This document shows, in pieces, positions 1 to 4,887 of a stretch of DNA of 14,943 nt. Both the position numbers and the translations under genes were made by a program. Within the stretch, counting starts at the first letter, position 1. Every line of letters begins with the position of its first letter. The DNA is taken from the UHGV virus genome UHGV-1730386; one strand, given 5' to 3'. This stretch comes from a virus. Below the pieces are notes generated by a model, which saw only the letters and a list, made by a program, of their open reading frames with translations, had not been told where the DNA came from and did not search any database.

Positions 1-381
1 GATAAACTCTTCAGGGTGTTCGGCAAGATACTGTTTCTTCTCATGGGTAGTTTTCCATGAAACATCTACAAAGACGTTAGGAAGCGTCTCTACAACGAAC
101 TTACCATGACCACGTTTATCGGTCTTTACGTCAGTCACTTTAAACTCTTCAGTGTGCATCTTCTTGTGTTTAATCAAGAAGTATGAACGGTGACCACACT
201 CGTAGAAAGATTCTGGAGATATTGAACGGTACATTGCCCCTTCAAACTTCAGCTTAACCCAATTATCATGAGCAGTGTCAAATTCTTCCCAAGAGTTAAC
301 ACGTATTGTCTGAACAGGTACAACCCTGCAAGCATAACCAAGTCCAACAAGGGGTGAGTTGTCAATAACTTCTCGGGCCAT
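1..381 (-). CDS. ATP-dependent DNA ligase, C-terminal portion (motif IV/V and OB-fold region); C-terminus lies beyond window start; out of frame with the upstream ligase ORF
   Basis: Minus-strand ATG at 381..379 opens a stop-free frame to position 1 (127 codons): MAREVIDNSPLVGLGYACRVVPVQTIRVNSWEEFDTAHDNWVKLKFEGAMYRSISPESFYECGHRSYFLIKHKKMH... It contains EGAMYR (ligase motif IV-like, EGxxxK/R) and FLIKHK (motif V-like, hhKxK). This ORF is absent from the supplied track because it has no stop inside the window. Confidence 0.5.
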   Translation of the reverse strand, partial: MAREVIDNSPLVGLGYACRVVPVQTIRVNSWEEFDTAHDNWVKLKFEGAMYRSISPESFYECGHRSYFLIKHKKMHTEEFKVTDVKTDKRGHGKFVVETLPNVFVDVSWKTTHEKKQYLAEHPEEFI

Positions 382-1004
382 GATTTAGTATTGTCACAGA
401 TATCGTACCAGTAAAATTTAAGAAGGTGACGGTTTGGATTGTCAGCATTCTTAATCATCGACACAATATCTTCCAAGTCCCAACCATGAGCATAAATCTC
501 ACCGTCAAAGTCTTCAACTTGTGGGTGACACCTCAGCATTAGGAGTAAATCTGGGATTAGTTCTGCTGGGACGTTATAAACAGTGTTCTCACGAGAATAA
601 GCTGTGAAGCTCACTGTATCAACATCTCTTGAAATCCTGCAACGAACACCATCAAGTTTAGGTTGAGCGTCAGCAGGGAACTTCAAGTACTTTGCGTGAC
701 TAATCTTTACAGCATCGTGAGCAAGCTGTACACCAACCTTTTCAACACTCTCTGCTTCAGATTTCGTGTAAGTATAACCTTTGCGGTCTACTTGTTTCTT
801 GTACTTTGCAGCAACTTCAAAGAGAGCTTGCTGTTCAGCATTACGCTCATTCTTTTTACCGATGTTCTTTGGCTCTGCTGTATATTCTTCAAACATCATT
901 TTGCCGTTTTCTTTGCCATAAGTGGTAACCACCTTATCACCTACAGCAACACACGACCAAACGTTAAAAGAGCCATCTTTATTTTGTTTGTACAGAATTG
1001 TCAT
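249..1004 (-). CDS. ATP-dependent DNA ligase, N-terminal nucleotidyltransferase domain; last ~45 codons before the stop look like out-of-frame read-through
   Basis: The 251-aa ORF carries covalent nucleotidyltransferase motifs in order: motif I PKLDGVRC (KxDGxR, adenylated lysine), motif III FDGEIY, motif IIIa FYWYDI. After YWYDI the frame becomes hydrophobic low-complexity sequence (LLTTHPLLDLVMLAGLYLF...) while motifs IV and V appear in another frame. The ATG at 1004..1002 overlaps the upstream stop (ATGA). Confidence 0.7.
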   Translation of the reverse strand: MTILYKQNKDGSFNVWSCVAVGDKVVTTYGKENGKMMFEEYTAEPKNIGKKNERNAEQQALFEVAAKYKKQVDRKGYTYTKSEAESVEKVGVQLAHDAVKISHAKYLKFPADAQPKLDGVRCRISRDVDTVSFTAYSRENTVYNVPAELIPDLLLMLRCHPQVEDFDGEIYAHGWDLEDIVSMIKNADNPNRHLLKFYWYDICDNTKSWPEKLLTTHPLLDLVMLAGLYLFRQYVLTLGKNLTLLMIIGLS

Positions 1005-1207
1005 TTTCTCTTCCCACCAATTTCTACATCAATAACTTGCACATCATCATCCACATCAAACTTATGGATAACATTCTCTACAGTGTACATCCAACCATCA
1101 ATCCTTACCCATTCACCTTCTCGTGGCACTATTGGGTTACGTTGGGCAACTGTAGTAGTTGAGTGTATAACGTCATAAAGGTGTATATAATTTACTAAAA
1201 CTTGCAT
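1001..1207 (-). CDS. hypothetical protein (68 aa)
   Basis: ATG-initiated ORF in the leftward gene string. Its stop overlaps the ligase start codon (ATGA at 1001..1004), suggesting translational coupling. No recognisable motif. Confidence 0.5.
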   Translation of the reverse strand: MQVLVNYIHLYDVIHSTTTVAQRNPIVPREGEWVRIDGWMYTVENVIHKFDVDDDVQVIDVEIGGKRK

Positions 1208-1216
1208 AGAAACATC

Positions 1217-1465
1217 TTAAAAGAATAAGTCTGAAGCTTTAGTTACAAGTCGGTTTGGAGAACCATTATAGTGTTCTTCAAAACCTTCTTGACAAGTGTT
1301 GTATAATTTCTTGAACTCTGCCACGTCAACTGGTTTAACATCCTTTTTAGCACATAGGAAAAGATACCAGTCATAACCTAGCCCTCTGCACCAAGCTTCT
1401 GAGATATAAGCTATTGACTTATCGTCATTTTTAAAGATATCTATTGCTTCTTGCTCTTTACCCAT
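1217..1465 (-). CDS. hypothetical protein (82 aa; start moved to internal ATG)
   Basis: The track ORF 1217..1507 begins at a TTG. An in-frame ATG at 1465..1463 is preceded by GGAG and overlaps the upstream stop (ATGGGTAA), so I take it as the start. No recognisable motif. Confidence 0.45.
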   Translation of the reverse strand: MGKEQEAIDIFKNDDKSIAYISEAWCRGLGYDWYLFLCAKKDVKPVDVAEFKKLYNTCQEGFEEHYNGSPNRLVTKASDLFF

Positions 1466-1670
1466 TTTGATTTCTCCAAAACTCAATGTCAATAAGTTCC
1501 TGTGCAATGCTTCTCATGTTACCTTTCAAAAAAACCTTTTCAGAGTTAGGTAGGCTTGCATTATCAATGAGCCTATTCATTCTGTCAAAAAGAGTTTTCT
1601 TCCGATTCTTGATAGTCTCTTTTGAAGCCACTTGCATCATGGCGAGATGGGTTCTTCCACGGTGACTCAT
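1458..1670 (-). CDS. hypothetical small basic protein (70 aa)
   Basis: ATG at 1670..1668 overlaps the stop of the upstream ORF (ATGA). Arg/Lys-rich N-terminal half (MSHRGRTHL...KNRKKTLFDRMNR). Stop overlaps the next start. Confidence 0.5.
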   Translation of the reverse strand: MSHRGRTHLAMMQVASKETIKNRKKTLFDRMNRLIDNASLPNSEKVFLKGNMRSIAQELIDIEFWRNQNG

Positions 1671-1867
1671 AGATGCTCCCCTTTAAGGTAACCTGTCTTA
1701 TCCTTGATAATCTTGCCTCCAGCAATAAAAATATCAACCTTGTAAAGATTTTCATTAGAAATCTTGAGGTGTTTATGGCTACTACAAATAATGATGCACA
1801 TGGACTCAATCTCACTTTGCGAGTATCCAGCACATTGCAGTTGAACTTCAATTTCTGAAATAGTCAT
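1667..1867 (-). CDS. hypothetical protein (66 aa)
   Basis: ATG at 1867..1865 is preceded on the minus strand by AGGAG at about 6-nt spacing. First gene downstream of the DNA polymerase stop. Confidence 0.5.
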   Translation of the reverse strand: MTISEIEVQLQCAGYSQSEIESMCIIICSSHKHLKISNENLYKVDIFIAGGKIIKDKTGYLKGEHL

Positions 1868-1894
1868 ATAAGTCTCCTATACAATATATAGTAT

Positions 1895-1923
1895 ATGGTA
1901 CTCTTCCATGAGCACCTTGTCAA
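1895..1923 (-). promoter_or_regulatory. candidate sigma70-like promoter (TTGACA-N17-TACCAT) just downstream of the DNA polymerase stop, reading leftward
   Basis: On the minus strand: TTGACA (plus 1918..1923), a 17-nt spacer, then TACCAT (plus 1895..1900), followed by an AT-rich leader and the AGGAG RBS of ORF 1667..1867. Sequence match only. Confidence 0.25.
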
Positions 1924-1928
1924 CACTA

Positions 1929-4628
1929 TTAGTGGACTTCAAGCCACGATTTACCAACCTTACCAGTACCCGTTACCAAAGTATCCTTCTTCAGCCCCAA
2001 GTTTTTAGAAGCTTGACCATAATACCAGTCAGTTACTGCCTTAACTTCTGCTGTCATGCTTTCTGGACATTCCCAGCTTGTTTCGTCGTGGTAAGCACAA
2101 AGTAAACGAGCACCGATAGCTGGCTTACGACCATTTAGTTTCATCAAACCTTCATCAATCATACGACGACAAGCAAGGTTGATTGCTTCATTCTGAACTT
2201 GTGCTTCTGAACCCATCAACAGATAGTTCAAGAGTTTGTGTGGAGATTTACACCACAACCACGCCCCAGCAACCTGAACAAATCCACCTTTAGCAATTGC
2301 AGCAGTTTTACCAAAGACCTCTTCAAGAGCTTTCTTAGTTGCTTTAAAGTCAGCTTCTAAGTTATCAATCAGTTTCTTAATCTTCGGCAAACGAACAAAG
2401 TAAGTCTGCTTAGTCAATGCACCTTCTTGAGTAGTTGAAGCTTTGATGGTCTTAGCAAACTTCTCATCACCCGCACCGAACAGCAGTGCATAGATACCGT
2501 TTTTAGCTTTTTTACGACCCTTACTAATCTCGTGAAGAAGATTCTCATCCTGAGTCATACGACAAGTCAAGATATCCTGCTCATCATTCAAGCTGAAGTA
2601 AATACTGTTCAGTGTGTGAGCATCAGTGCCTGAATAGACTACGTACAAGTCGTTTTCAGAGTCATAACGCAGATACTTGTCAACTTCTGGGTTAAGGTAT
2701 TCGTCGAAGTGTTTGCAGTAATAACGACCATCTTCTTGACGAATAAACTCAATTTCTTCCTTACCTTCTGTTACTGCTTTGGTGAACTCTTTATCACCCA
2801 TAAAGTTACACAGTAACACAAGCTGTGCAGAGTTCATATCAACGGATACTACGTTGGTTCCTTCTTCACAAATCCAGACTGCCCTCATTGGTTCCCCGTA
2901 AACAGCAGCCCCAGAAGGTACGTTCACAATACCATACTGTGTCATACGACCAGTTGAAGTACCAAACACCATTGCACCAGCACTCAAGCGACCATCTGGA
3001 CGAATCTGGTTTAACCAACCTTTCTCGTCATCTTTTGAGTTCTCAATAGTTCTACGTCGGTGCATCAAAGTATAGTACTTCGCAATCTTTTGTCCAAGTT
3101 CACCTTCAATGGTGTCATAAGAAGATTCAGTAAGTTTAGGTGAAGTACGAATCAAGCAAGGCTCAAGCAAATCTGTGTACTTCCTAACAGACCAGTTATG
3201 CTCAATGTAATGAACCCCTTCATGCTCAATGTAGTTCAATCCACAACGTTCAACCATCTCATCCCACTTAGGATGTTTACGAATCATCTTCTTATTATCT
3301 TTGAAGCGACATACCTTGATTGGACGGTTATCAGAATCCTTTTTGTAGTTCCAATCATCAGGAATCCAGCCAACAGATTTCAAGTATTCCTTCACCACTG
3401 CAACTTGAGTCATACGTGAAACTTCAAACTCAATTGGTGTATAAGGTGCATCAACAAGACCTGTGTAACGGCTTGACTCCATTTCAAAGTGATTTACTAC
3501 GTGGTTATTGTAGTACTTCACAGTTTTAACTGTCTTAACTGGCTTCCAATCCTTACACTTCTTGCCAGCCTTAGCATTCAACTCATTGCAGATTGCACGA
3601 GCATCTTTCATTGCTACAAAACCTTCCCTGTACTCTTCACCAGTGACAGTGTTAGTTGGAGTGTAGCAATTACGTTTCTCAATGTTGAAAATCTTTGTAG
3701 TTGGTTTCCCATATGGCTTGATAGGGTACGTCTTCAGTTCCCCTTCACGCATCTGCTCACGATACTTTGTCTTTGGATACTTTGTGATACGTTTCAAACC
3801 ATCTACATGACCAAATGTTTCAACATACTCATTCCATGCCTTGGCAAACTCTTCACCAGTTACTTTACCTTTCGTCTTAATAGTCGGAGGTAAGAACGGT
3901 TCAACTTCAGAGGCTAACTCAGAAGTCATCTTATCCAGTTCTTCTACACAGGACTTCATAAGGTCAATGTTAGCTTTCCAACCATTAATAGCTTGTTGAC
4001 TCATCCAGAAAGAAGTCTCTTTAGCTCGCATGTAGGTTTCGTAAGTATCTACACCACACTTCTTAAGCTTAAGGTATTCATTATCCATAGCACGTTTTGC
4101 TTTGGCGTTGATTCGAATATCCTCAACAACACGGTTAAGAATATCAGCGTTCCACACACCCCACTCTTCAATCTCTGGTTTACGAACACCAACACGAGCA
4201 CCCCATGCAGCCAAGCCATGAGCACCTTTGTAACCTTTTGGTGTAGGTCTATCCATCCACTGCACACGAGATTGTATAAGTGAATCCTGAAAGAAGTCAC
4301 TCCAAGGTTTACACTTAGGATTATCAAAGTTCCACAGGTCAGGTGCAATATGGTTGAACACCCACCAGTCATAACCAAGACCATTGTGGATACAAAGGCG
4401 TTTGGCTTTCAATGCAAACTCCACACCTTCACGCAAACCACCTTTGATGTATTTTGTATACTTGTGACCAAGGATAGGCTCATCAGTGAAAACCCACACA
4501 GCAGGTTCATCACTATCATCTTTGTAATCTGCGAATGCCATAACGTGAGCTTTTGTAAACTCAAGCAGCAACCCGTCAGTTTCTGTATCACCAACCAAAT
4601 GTAAGTTTTCAAAATCTACATTGTTCAT
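1929..4628 (-). CDS. DNA polymerase, family A (Pol I / T7 gp5-like) with N-terminal 3'-5' exonuclease domain
   Basis: 899-aa ORF. Exo I motif VGDTETDGL and an HNGLGYD Exo II-like motif at the N-terminus. Polymerase motif A SVDMNSAQLVLL, motif B (O-helix) RKKAKNGIYALLFGAG, motif C YHDET. GAGGGAG RBS about 6 nt upstream of the ATG at 4628..4626. Confidence 0.92.
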   Translation of the reverse strand: MNNVDFENLHLVGDTETDGLLLEFTKAHVMAFADYKDDSDEPAVWVFTDEPILGHKYTKYIKGGLREGVEFALKAKRLCIHNGLGYDWWVFNHIAPDLWNFDNPKCKPWSDFFQDSLIQSRVQWMDRPTPKGYKGAHGLAAWGARVGVRKPEIEEWGVWNADILNRVVEDIRINAKAKRAMDNEYLKLKKCGVDTYETYMRAKETSFWMSQQAINGWKANIDLMKSCVEELDKMTSELASEVEPFLPPTIKTKGKVTGEEFAKAWNEYVETFGHVDGLKRITKYPKTKYREQMREGELKTYPIKPYGKPTTKIFNIEKRNCYTPTNTVTGEEYREGFVAMKDARAICNELNAKAGKKCKDWKPVKTVKTVKYYNNHVVNHFEMESSRYTGLVDAPYTPIEFEVSRMTQVAVVKEYLKSVGWIPDDWNYKKDSDNRPIKVCRFKDNKKMIRKHPKWDEMVERCGLNYIEHEGVHYIEHNWSVRKYTDLLEPCLIRTSPKLTESSYDTIEGELGQKIAKYYTLMHRRRTIENSKDDEKGWLNQIRPDGRLSAGAMVFGTSTGRMTQYGIVNVPSGAAVYGEPMRAVWICEEGTNVVSVDMNSAQLVLLCNFMGDKEFTKAVTEGKEEIEFIRQEDGRYYCKHFDEYLNPEVDKYLRYDSENDLYVVYSGTDAHTLNSIYFSLNDEQDILTCRMTQDENLLHEISKGRKKAKNGIYALLFGAGDEKFAKTIKASTTQEGALTKQTYFVRLPKIKKLIDNLEADFKATKKALEEVFGKTAAIAKGGFVQVAGAWLWCKSPHKLLNYLLMGSEAQVQNEAINLACRRMIDEGLMKLNGRKPAIGARLLCAYHDETSWECPESMTAEVKAVTDWYYGQASKNLGLKKDTLVTGTGKVGKSWLEVH

Positions 4629-4887
4629 TTTAACTCCCTCTCAAATCATACTGCTTAATACCCTACTCCAATTTTTATGAAAAAGCAAGTTGACAAAGCA
4701 CTTGACAAGGTGTTAATCTTTGCGGAGTGGGTTTTATCTTAATAGACTCTCTTTACAGGTTAACTATACAGATTCTTTAAAACCCTTAAAAGATTTTTAA
4801 TAGCCTTTTAAAAGCTTTAAAGTTATACGTATAGAATACGTAAAGATAAGAGATTAAAATCTTTATAGAAACTTAGTAGAGGCAATT
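4629..4887. promoter_or_regulatory. AT-rich divergent intergenic control region between the leftward polymerase block and the rightward block
   Basis: 259 bp of non-coding DNA flanked by divergent start codons at 4628 (-) and 4888 (+). Contains tandem TTGACAA heptamers (4690..4696, 4702..4708), perfect palindromes CTTTTAAAAG (4805..4814), CTTTAAAG (4815..4822) and TATACGTATA (4824..4833), and a possible leftward promoter (GGTTAA 4758..4763 and ATCTTA 4736..4741 on plus, i.e. TTAACC-N16-TAAGAT on minus). Confidence 0.45.

Follow-up and report, generated by a model that had tools for sequence, protein, structure and literature searches.

Small ORFs between replication genes have been described in T4-type phages (Arbiol et al. 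2010, PMC2839356; Comeau et al. 2014, PMC4122927), as hyperplastic regions and as cassettes with promoter-early stem-loops (PeSL). In the hyperplastic regions, runs of small non-essential ORFs lie between core replication genes and are shuffled among close relatives, and short conserved gene-boundary sequences are plausibly recombination sites. The PeSL cassettes combine a conserved sigma-70-like early promoter with a separate, transcription-terminating stem-loop, and a genome contains many of them beside its variable ORFs. In Felix-O1-like phages, the genes of interest here belong to PHROG families whose members are annotated 'hypothetical protein' in Felix O1 (Felix01p173, gp174, Felix01p168) and SUSP1 (agp044, agp042), and likewise in Moogle, Michonne, Sf13-Sf19 and ESh19-22. 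The only functional work on the small genes of Felixounavirus found in the literature was a CRISPRi-ART screen of SUSP1, in which agp041-045 were all scored 'Not Fit' and the polymerase 'Fit' (PMC11879866 supplement). The SUSP1 ligase was also 'Not Fit'; the screen used one laboratory host and its authors report a false-negative rate (PMC11879866).

The stretch of DNA analysed here (the window, 14,943 nt) comes from a metagenome-derived lytic phage of the Ounavirinae (Mooglevirus/Suspvirus-like). An earlier note, made from the sequence alone, had described four small ORFs between a polymerase and a ligase gene; their lengths, coordinates and common strand were confirmed (Table 1). The polymerase matched Pfam DNA_pol_A (E 1.1e-14) and phrog_17 (E 4.6e-112) and was 99.8% identical to that of ESh22. 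The synteny check that the note had proposed was positive: in ESh22, Sf19, mistaenkt, SUSP1 and 18 IMG/VR contigs the PHROG genes are likewise flanked by the family A polymerase and the ATP-dependent ligase, with order and strand unchanged, and an identical four-gene layout was present on an independent 81-kb Logan contig.

Table 1. Features of the polymerase-ligase interval and its predicted promoter block (positions in the window)
Feature	Position	Strand	Details
ATP-dependent DNA ligase gene	1..1004	minus	last gene of presumed operon; phrog_114 match, E 1.5e-51
ORF4	1001-1207	minus	68 aa; phrog_4427; pI 5.1
ORF3	1217-1465	minus	82 aa; phrog_9065; pI 5.0
ORF2	1458-1670	minus	70 aa; phrog_5180; pI 10.6 (10.58)
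ORF1	1667-1867	minus	66 aa; phrog_4230; pI 6.3
Conserved non-coding block	1870..1926	minus	~55 nt; upstream of ORF1; promoter scan; nearly invariant in 25 loci
Shine-Dalgarno AGGAG	1878-1874	minus
Candidate -10-like TACCAT	1900-1895	minus	17-nt spacer from -35
Inverted repeat arm GAGTACC	1903-1897	minus
Inverted repeat loop ATGGAA	1909-1904	minus
Inverted repeat arm GGTGCTC	1916-1910	minus
Candidate -35 TTGACA	1923-1918	minus	promoter scan
Family A DNA polymerase gene	1929..4628	minus	899 aa; upstream neighbour, left anchor of cassette

The ORFs had been described as a chain joined by start/stop overlaps. This held for three of the four junctions, one of them with the ligase: the ORF1 stop and the ORF2 start share an ATGA (1670-1667), the ORF2 stop and the ORF3 start overlap in ATGGGTAA (1465-1458), and a further ATGA is common to the ORF4 stop and the ligase start (1004-1001). 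It did not hold for ORF3 and ORF4, where the stop (1219-1217) and the following start (1207-1205) lie 9 nt apart. Shine-Dalgarno motifs precede ORF1-3 and the ligase, and that of ORF4 is weak in the window. In the ORF list ORF3 reaches up to a TTG at 1507; relatives keep the ATG at 1465, which has GGAG 8 nt upstream. Two disruptions were seen at the downstream end. The ligase ORF ends at 249 after 251 aa and the remainder continues in another frame to position 1, the gene being broken by a 7-bp deletion (GCGTCGT, present in every relative, is absent between 373 and 372). In a public scaffold, which is another assembly of the same phage, ORF4 is interrupted by a palindromic insertion of 32 nt (1184-1196 in that ENA scaffold).

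The gene sets between polymerase and ligase differed among 22 relatives. Genes for an HNH endonuclease, a zinc-ribbon protein or a lipoprotein, or a borderline Tad2-like gene, can occupy the interval in relatives. Most of them have the lipoprotein gene, which the window lacks. ORF4 precedes other small genes, not the ligase, in many relatives (F13, F20, F14), and SUSP1 has no counterpart of ORF2 or ORF3. ORF2 is therefore not universal, and its constancy in loci L004-L021 is partly a selection effect, since ORF2 served as the query by which these loci were collected. The accessory gene ORF1 exists in two types, which are allelic or paralogous. In Felixounavirus a paralogue of 33-40% identity follows ORF2, and both copies are present in UAB_Phi87 (L010).

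Relative to the catalogued families, the window differs in nothing essential and represents only a new mosaic of known alleles, with ESh22-like ORF1, ORF2 and 5' ORF3 followed by Felix/Sf19-like ORF4. A recombination breakpoint was located inside ORF3: the gene is identical to ESh22 over its first two thirds, and its 3' third belongs with another lineage. Over the gene, nucleotide identity to contig L034 was 98.8%; locus L004 is 100% identical through the polymerase and ORF1, but only 50% in ORF3. Judged from these alignments, ORF3 is a recombinant that occupies a variable slot. The 3' ends of ORF2, ORF3 and ORF4 supply the ribosome-binding site and start context of the next gene, whichever gene that is. 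The interval as a whole is best described as a hyperplastic accessory-gene cassette, in which genes are swapped at these reused junctions.

The ORF3 slot is filled differently in two relatives, SUSP1 (agp043) and the Michonne-type locus L006. Both have there a gene resembling Tad2/DUF2829 (PF11195, Thoeris anti-defence 2-like), and the SUSP1 gene has the C-terminal KASDLFF of ORF3 and the same downstream junction. The slot-mates scored 24.5-24.9 bits against a Pfam gathering threshold of 25 (E 3-4e-5), over only the N-terminal half or so of the PF11195 model, and a PDB sequence search with this neighbour found no Tad2 structure. ORF3 itself differs in being without similarity to PF11195, and none of the other window proteins matched that model either.

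The earlier note had recognised no motif in the four proteins, and broader searches agreed: scans of Pfam, NCBIfam and PADLOC (defence-system proteins) and sequence and fold searches of the PDB gave no significant match, with nothing below E 0.05 in the PDB profile searches by sequence for any of the four families. For ORF1 in particular there was no Pfam or PDB match. In these searches none of the four proteins matched a characterised anti-defence or takeover protein. The profile-HMM and structure-prediction searches that the note had proposed assigned each ORF to a PHROG family and yielded AlphaFold models of ORF2 and ORF4; they did not reveal a function. All four proteins are too small for enzymes and are without catalytic motifs.

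The strongly basic character noted for ORF2 was borne out (K+R 13 against D+E 7). Its AlphaFold2 model (pLDDT 84.8) consists of helices 3-14, 17-36 and 42-68, the last of which resembles designed coiled coils; a Foldseek search of the PDB with this model returned nothing at E<1 and only non-specific helical matches at E>1. Homologues of ORF2 include those of Erwinia Kolesnikvirus and T4-like Karamvirus phages. The ORF4 model is a confident five-stranded beta protein. Some ORF4 orthologues carry the label 'ATP-binding sugar transporter' (Gifsy-2-type small beta-barrel).

For ORF3, repeated low-scoring matches to winged-helix domains were obtained. The window protein scored 12.8 bits against RFX_DNA_binding (PF02257), under the gathering cut-off of 27. 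Within its family, 7/23 members matched RFX (best E 0.019) and 3/23 matched Cdc6_C (PF09079; best E 4.3e-4), all below the curated thresholds, and a profile search of the PDB gave 2qby (E 0.17) and 1dp7 (E 0.35). The family motif Y-x2-Y-(L/I)-x2-C-x5-6-P-(V/L)-x3-4-F aligns with helix 2-turn-helix 3 of the winged-helix domains; however, the ORF3 family is acidic and a wing segment is not evident. The ORF3 core is possibly helix-turn-helix-like, on these sub-threshold matches. The representative search for ORF3 widened the family and gained no annotated relative. The remote relatives (57-88 aa) have the common motif W..R(D/G)..Y..Y...C......P and are found within runs of small early genes adjoining a T7 Gp5.9-like gene. 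The multi-stretch matches from the ORF3 search (580-4037 aa) were probably compositional.

The position between polymerase and ligase, fixed in more than 250 genomes, raises the question of whether the small proteins, mainly those of ORF2 and ORF4, are auxiliary replication or repair factors that act with either enzyme, for example as ligase/clamp adaptors or DNA-end binders. The ATGA that would couple ORF4 translation to the ligase, the basic charge of ORF2, common for nucleic-acid binders, and the strong purifying selection on the genes would all be consistent with such a role. We nevertheless regard it as unlikely. Against it stand the many relatives in which ORF4 is not followed by the ligase, the lack of ORF2 in SUSP1, and the Karamvirus homologues of ORF2, which lie beside a tRNA cluster, far from replication genes. 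No resemblance to known accessory proteins of the replisome emerged from the PDB searches by sequence or by fold. Furthermore, the SUSP1 orthologue of ORF4 (agp042, 88%) and even the ligase were 'Not Fit' (PMC11879866).

Among the families considered here, the SUSP1 screen covers homologues of ORF1 and ORF4 only. The ORF1-family gene, agp044, is a 35%-identical copy of the paralogue type and was also 'Not Fit' (PMC11879866), so that these two SUSP1 homologues were dispensable under the conditions of the screen. A 'Not Fit' result in one laboratory host is equally expected of a redundant replication helper. The four genes of the window appear to be dispensable in the laboratory, and we assign them accessory status because SUSP1 lacks ORF2, because ORF1 and ORF3 were found in only 70 and 47 phage records, respectively, and because agp041-045 were all 'Not Fit'.

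The candidate promoter that had been placed upstream of the ORFs was found again. It matches the consensus at 10 of 12 positions and is part of a block with hardly any variation between genera (25 loci), while the flanking genes reach dS values of ~1. The -10 element is poor, being TACCAT in the window and TACCTT in most relatives, and promoter-like matches were not enriched in the region overall (17 found against 13 +/- 3.7 expected). Two internal promoter-like sites in ORF2 (1588 and 1492) were rejected as promoters: they are a by-product of conserved codons, and Sf19-type relatives do not retain them. The block travels with the first small ORF, be that ORF1 or ORF2, and stays downstream of the HNH gene where this has been inserted after the polymerase. 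At the equivalent position, the Erwinia phages M7 and Ep030 have GATGCACA-AGGA-TGTGTATC. This pattern points to a predicted promoter of the sigma-70 type that is deeply conserved.

The inverted repeat within the block showed two compensatory pairs in the Erwinia phages, with 91% of cells paired compared to 21-55% with slid partners. The RNA fold of the block gave z = -2.25, and an Rfam search over 900-2050 returned no family match. As in PeSL cassettes, a sigma-70-like promoter is combined with a potential stem-loop, but here the repeat is embedded in the promoter spacer and extends into the -10 element, with no separate terminator hairpin. It has no U-tract or T-run, and the scan called no terminator-like site there or elsewhere between 1001 and 1928. 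The predicted block also differs from PeSL elements in copy number, one copy being present in the 14.9-kb window, where a site at 4702 shares only TTGACAAGGTG. In addition, the reused junctions are coding 3' ends and not repeated promoter-terminator units. VIPR-type YNNGG repeats, as reported for SUSP1 (bioRxiv 10.64898/2026.04.26.720920), were not found in the window, and neither were tRNAs.

The conserved palindrome between -35 and -10, with its compensatory changes across genera, could be taken as the binding site of a regulator encoded in the cassette itself, which would then be autoregulated. The putative regulator would be ORF3, given the recurring sub-threshold matches to H2-turn-H3, or ORF2, given its high pI and coiled-coil-like C-terminal helix. 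This reading is very improbable. The palindrome is invariant in phages without ORF3 (most Felixounavirus loci) and also in SUSP1, which lacks both ORFs; the putative recognition helix of the ORF3 family is as acidic as the family itself; every winged-helix score was under the curated cut-off; and in relatives another gene, downstream of the ligase, carries a transcriptional-regulator annotation.

That the four ORFs are genes was supported by several types of comparison. Each matched its PHROG profile HMM over essentially the whole protein and the whole profile (E 1.6e-34 for ORF1, 8.9e-44 for ORF2, 1.7e-39 for ORF3 and 1.7e-41 for ORF4), all four families being function-unassigned in PHROG. 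Homologues were found by tblastn in 70 (ORF1), 285 (ORF2), 47 (ORF3) and 257 (ORF4) phage records. Where dS was unsaturated, pairwise dN/dS against relatives was 0.04-0.2 for the four ORFs, with 0.07-0.19 for ORF1 (close relatives) and 0.06-0.16 for ORF2. The earlier note would have abandoned the ORFs had they been non-conserved or free of coding constraint; since both conservation and constraint were seen, they stand as genes. Because the ORFs occur in 47-285 phage genomes with such low dN/dS, we take ORF1-ORF4, on this comparative evidence, to be genuine, conserved small protein genes. The notion that AT-rich phage DNA produced these frames by chance, or that they are decaying remnants in it, without a functional protein, might draw on their shortness, their lack of a Pfam domain, the interruption of ORF4 in one assembly and the frameshift in the adjoining ligase, but is scarcely tenable and is already refuted by the full-length PHROG matches, the intact orthologues in tens to hundreds of isolates and the dN/dS well under 1 at dS up to ~1-2, to which the start contexts kept across relatives and the confident models of ORF2 and ORF4 can be added.

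The explanation that we consider probable overall is that these real small genes form a swapped cassette in a short promoter-driven operon and encode binders of host or phage macromolecules. ORF1-ORF4 would be the promoter-proximal part of this operon, with the DNA ligase as its last gene, and we infer that they are co-transcribed from the predicted sigma-70-type promoter with its spacer inverted repeat, their translation being coupled through the ATGA and ATGGGTAA overlaps. ORF2, a basic three-helix protein, and ORF4, a small beta domain that is frequent in phages, may be the widespread anchor genes of the cassette, with ORF1 and ORF3 as interchangeable occupants of variable slots and with recombination at the reused junction sequences exchanging whole genes. 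The four proteins would act stoichiometrically and be conditionally useful, not needed for basic replication. Possible roles would include host takeover, counter-defence and competition between phages.

The earlier note had suggested host-takeover or anti-defence functions. The evidence for this remained circumstantial, consisting of the gene-swapping hot-spot, the near-cut-off Tad2-like slot-mate and the 'Not Fit' homologues, and for the four proteins a part in host interaction or counter-defence is plausible but unproven. We can offer only tentatively, as something we would rather doubt than expect, that at least one of them is an uncharacterised counter-defence or inter-phage-competition factor, and that the cassette is switched on from the predicted promoter, the palindrome in its spacer being an operator that phages of Escherichia and Erwinia alike have conserved. 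The best candidate for such a factor would be ORF3 (phrog_9065). It alternates with the Tad2-like gene in one fixed slot, and the Gp5.9-like gene beside which its remote relatives lie is of the RecBCD-inhibitor type.

The finding is largely ordinary, because the genes are already catalogued as function-unassigned, with hundreds of Felix-O1-like phage genomes listing them as hypothetical proteins, and seem not to be needed in the laboratory. The present work adds no function for them, and its significance is small as it stands. The map of the polymerase-ligase cassette points experimenters to slots in which to look for host-interaction genes of candidate phages for therapy and biocontrol. The predicted promoter block with its embedded palindrome is a tractable and very strongly conserved regulatory element, and phrog_9065 is a widespread small-protein family with a defined motif that would be cheaply testable.

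The first 5 kb of the window matched 295 phage records by megablast, all of them Felix-O1-like myoviruses of the subfamily Ounavirinae, with Shigella phages ESh22 and ESh21 the closest (96% identity, 96% query coverage). Two metagenome sequences also encode the exact ORF2 protein, a 23.5-kb scaffold (ENA ERZ28622977, sample SAMEA1966253) and a 1.1-kb contig at NCBI. The four small ORFs between the DNA polymerase (pol) and ligase genes have the sizes reported in the earlier note, and the one described there as strongly basic is ORF2. The three start/stop overlaps quoted for their chaining are correct (ATGA at ORF1/ORF2 and ORF4/ligase, ATGGGTAA at ORF2/ORF3), but ORF3 and ORF4 are separated by a 9-nt gap. 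GGAG-type ribosome-binding sites were seen upstream of ORF1, ORF2, ORF3 and ligase; that of ORF4 is weak in the window (AAGATG) compared with AAGAGG in an otherwise near-identical contig.

Features of the pol-ligase region and of related loci (L-numbers); coordinates without an L-number are those of the window
Feature	Coordinates	Strand	Remarks
Family A DNA polymerase (pol)	1929-4628	minus	flanks ORF1 side
Candidate promoter	1923-1895		TTGACA-N17-TACCAT
Inverted repeat	1897-1916	minus	arms 1916-1910 and 1903-1897
ORF1	1667-1867	minus	66 aa, pI 6.3
ORF2	1458-1670	minus	70 aa, basic, pI 10.58
ORF3	1217-1465	minus	82 aa, pI 5.0
ORF4	1001-1207	minus	68 aa, pI 5.1
ATP-dependent DNA ligase	start at 1004 (249-1004; 1-372)	minus	flanks ORF4 side
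ORF2 homologues, Karamvirus	L025 2420-2704; L023 4001-4159		49-58% identity
Lipoprotein gene (example)	L001 5295-5540
HNH/AP2-domain homing endonuclease	L003 4570-5082		directly after pol stop
Tad2-like gene in ORF3 slot	L026 1009-1221; L006 4207-4407		SUSP1; Michonne-type
ORF2 with premature stop	L034 2038-2226		81-kb contig
32-nt insert in ORF4	L027 3488-3519		ENA scaffold; window 1184-1196

Each ORF gave a full-length match to one PHROG family of unknown function (ORF1 phrog_4230, ORF2 phrog_5180, ORF3 phrog_9065, ORF4 phrog_4427; E 1.6e-34 to 8.9e-44), and tblastn found matches in 70, 285, 47 and 257 deposited phage genomes, respectively. Pairwise Nei-Gojobori dN/dS values between the window and its relatives were 0.04-0.2 where dS was unsaturated, and about 0.3-0.66 for deeply diverged ORF1 paralogue pairs with dS above 1. 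Both the conservation and the coding constraint whose absence would have counted against the ORFs were thus found, and the four are almost certainly real genes. They are already known as annotated hypothetical genes and belong to catalogued but uncharacterised families.

ORF1 gave no signal in Pfam or PDB. Its family comprises two types, 33-40% identical and placed before or after ORF2, and phage UAB_Phi87 has both. The AlphaFold2 model of ORF2 (21 homologues, pLDDT 84.8) has three helices (3-14, 17-36 and 42-68) and found no PDB match with E below 1 by Foldseek; in the profile search of PDB, the last helix matched designed coiled coils, weakly, and nothing else was matched. Homologues of ORF2 are present in Erwinia Kolesnikvirus phages and in T4-like Enterobacter Karamvirus phages, which indicates that the gene has moved between phage families. 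The Karamvirus copies lie just upstream of a tRNA cluster and are unannotated in myPSH1140 and Entb_43; in Entb_43 only the last 17 nt overlap the neighbouring gene.

Among 1.84 billion representative proteins, a profile search for the ORF3 family gave 31 matches at E 1e-3 or better. About 20 small proteins among them, all phrog_9065, have the motif W-x-R-(D/G)-x2-Y-x2-Y-x3-C-x5-6-P-(L/V) in common. Sub-threshold matches to RFX_DNA_binding (7 of 23 family members, best E 0.019) and Cdc6_C (3 of 23, best E 4.3e-4) fall on the helix-turn-helix part of the winged-helix domain, and Cdc6/Orc1 (2qby, E 0.17) and RFX1 (1dp7, E 0.35) were near the top of the ORF3 profile search of PDB. This apparent winged-helix likeness is a lead rather than membership, and plain DNA binding is disfavoured because the family is acidic. 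Remote relatives occur in long runs of small early genes, with a dCMP deaminase, thioredoxin, ThyX and a T7 Gp5.9-like gene as neighbours.

For ORF4, the model has five beta strands (pLDDT 81.9, pTM 0.69) and gave seven BFVD matches with E of 1e-3 or better; weaker matches included many 60-80 aa proteins of Caulobacter, Pectobacterium, Vibrio, Bacillus, Arthrobacter and T4-like phages. All are uncharacterised. The label 'ATP-binding sugar transporter' on one orthologue has no support. The ENA scaffold, otherwise a 100% match to the window, carries an extra 32 nt that disrupt ORF4 in that assembly. This insert consists of the ORF3-ORF4 junction in reverse complement and a 10-nt repeat, makes a 22-nt palindrome, and probably arose as an assembly artefact where the junction varies between strains.

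The candidate promoter noted earlier was present, matching the consensus at 10 of 12 positions. By itself the site is not unusual, since 17 promoter-like sites were found in the region against 13 +/- 3.7 expected. What sets it apart is conservation: a stretch of about 55 nt that runs from GTTGACA to the AGGAG ribosome-binding site hardly varies among Mooglevirus, Suspvirus and Felixounavirus loci, whereas the genes on either side differ by ~20%, with dS reaching values near 1. The block sits before the first small gene, ORF1 in Moogle-like phages and ORF2 in most Felixounavirus, and downstream of the HNH homing-endonuclease gene where one is inserted after pol. A scan found no terminator-like site between pol and ligase, so that ORF1-ORF4 are likely, we infer, to be co-transcribed with ligase. 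Upstream of pol, the divergent intergenic region at 4629-4887, facing plus-strand replication genes, has adjacent TTGACA boxes at 4690 and 4702 and several 11-12-nt tandem repeats; the second of these boxes has TTGACAAGGTG in common with the ORF1 promoter. This is probably a compound regulatory region.

The promoter spacer contains a 7-bp inverted repeat (GGTGCTC, loop ATGGAA, GAGTACC) that lies between the hexamers, its GAGTACC arm overlapping the -10; enterobacterial Ounavirinae show no variation in it. In Erwinia phages M7 and Ep030, GATGCACA-AGGA-TGTGTATC occupies exactly the same register: two pairs differ in both arms (G-C to A-T, T-A to A-T), one pair is gained and one G-T pair is kept. 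In the repeat alignment 91% of cells were paired, compared with 21-55% when partners were slid by 1-3 columns. The compensatory changes are supportive but thin evidence, as they amount to one evolutionary event. As RNA, the promoter region gave a fold z of -2.25, and no Rfam family matched over it. The repeat could serve as an operator on the DNA, or form an RNA hairpin in transcripts that read through from pol.

In 22 related loci, every forward ORF of the pol-ligase interval was mapped, and the ORFs were clustered. ORF2 served as the query that retrieved L004-L021, which biases its constancy there, and SUSP1 is entirely without it. The general order was pol, an optional HNH endonuclease, the promoter block, an optional ORF1, ORF2, a variable slot (ORF1 paralogue, ORF3, Tad2-like gene or a 47-58 aa gene), a small lipoprotein, ORF4, optional small genes including a CxxC zinc-ribbon protein, and ligase. 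Of these loci, the window has the shortest interval (925 nt). Contig L004 and the window are 100% identical in pol and in ORF1 and 98.6% in ORF2, but only 50% in ORF3. The first two thirds of the window ORF3 are identical to ESh22 and the remainder follows another lineage, and ORF4 is of the Felix/Sf19 type (85-88% identity, against 53% to the ESh22 type). Junctions recur with different partners: the final codons of ORF2 (ATTGACATTGAGTwTTGGAGAnAnCAAAAATG) lead into ORF3, an ORF1 paralogue or a Tad2-like gene, and those of ORF4 (GGTGGTAAGAGAAAATG) into ligase or either of two other genes. KASDLFF is the C-terminal end of ORF3 and also of the Tad2-like proteins of SUSP1 and the Michonne-type contig, and in SUSP1 the sequence into ORF4 is likewise common to both.

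Most relatives have a 74-89 aa lipoprotein gene (lipobox L(V/S/A)GC, phrog_902), possibly of the superinfection-exclusion type, at the ORF3/ORF4 gap (window 1208-1216). It is absent from the window, L018 and L034, and in L018 an ORF3-family gene is also joined straight to ORF4. An assembly accident was ruled out for the layout without it, the same being found in the independent contig L034: pol, genes of 72, 62, 82 and 68 aa, and an intact 366-aa ligase (nucleotide identity to the window 98.8% in ORF3, 92% in ORF4). ORF2 of L034 has lost its last 8 residues to a premature stop (GAG to TAG); either the C-terminal tail is dispensable or that copy is decaying. Homing endonuclease genes of the HNH/AP2 kind follow pol in L003, L006, L007, L009, L013 and others, and are absent from the window.

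In the window ligase, 7 bp (GCGTCGT) present in every relative are missing between 373 and 372. As a result, the frame breaks after ~211 codons and stops at 249; what is left of ligase is read in a different frame as far as the window edge. On the public scaffold, ligase is called as the same 251-aa gene. A ligase-defective phage may be viable, given that the SUSP1 ligase was 'Not Fit' in a knock-down screen; an assembly error is equally possible.

That screen, a CRISPRi-ART study, targeted each gene of SUSP1 for knock-down (PMC11879866). In its annotation table, agp044 is placed in phrog_4230, the family of ORF1, agp042 in phrog_4427 and agp043 in phrog_3474 (PMC11879866); agp042 is 88% identical to ORF4. 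According to the source data of Fig. 6a, the ligase (agp040) and agp041-045 were each 'Not Fit' and pol (agp046) was 'Fit', with scores of 0.72 (p 0.13) for agp042 and -0.30 for agp044, the authors acknowledging a false-negative rate (PMC11879866). Where knocked down, the homologues are dispensable on a laboratory host. The product of agp043 and its Michonne-type counterpart matched Pfam PF11195 (Tad2-like, Thoeris anti-defence 2) over just the N-terminal half of the model and slightly below the cut-off of 25 bits (E 3-4e-5, 24.5-24.9 bits); no Tad2 structure was found for them by sequence.

The pol-ligase interval works like T4-type hyperplastic regions in architecture (PMC2839356, PMC4122927), and is very probably an accessory-gene cassette. 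The reading with the best support is a short operon in which four small, translationally coupled accessory genes would stand ahead of ligase. The promoter block is reminiscent of the T4-type PeSL promoter/stem-loop cassettes (PMC2839356, PMC4122927), but fails their definition because the repeat lies inside the promoter spacer, a terminator hairpin with a T-run is absent and the window has a single copy. The main rival gives the widespread ORF2 and ORF4 an auxiliary role in replication or repair and is rather improbable. Autoregulation by ORF2 or ORF3 through the promoter palindrome is unlikely, as the palindrome is unchanged in phages without either gene.

The string of four ORFs described earlier is confirmed, and its interpretation finds partial support; the host-takeover or anti-defence role is still one that we infer. 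ORF1-ORF4 are under purifying selection, yet each is missing from some relatives. Homing endonucleases, zinc-ribbon genes, a lipoprotein and a Tad2-like gene occupy the same slots, and this pattern tentatively suggests that the four proteins might act as small binders, serving the phage as conditionally useful host-interaction or competition factors.
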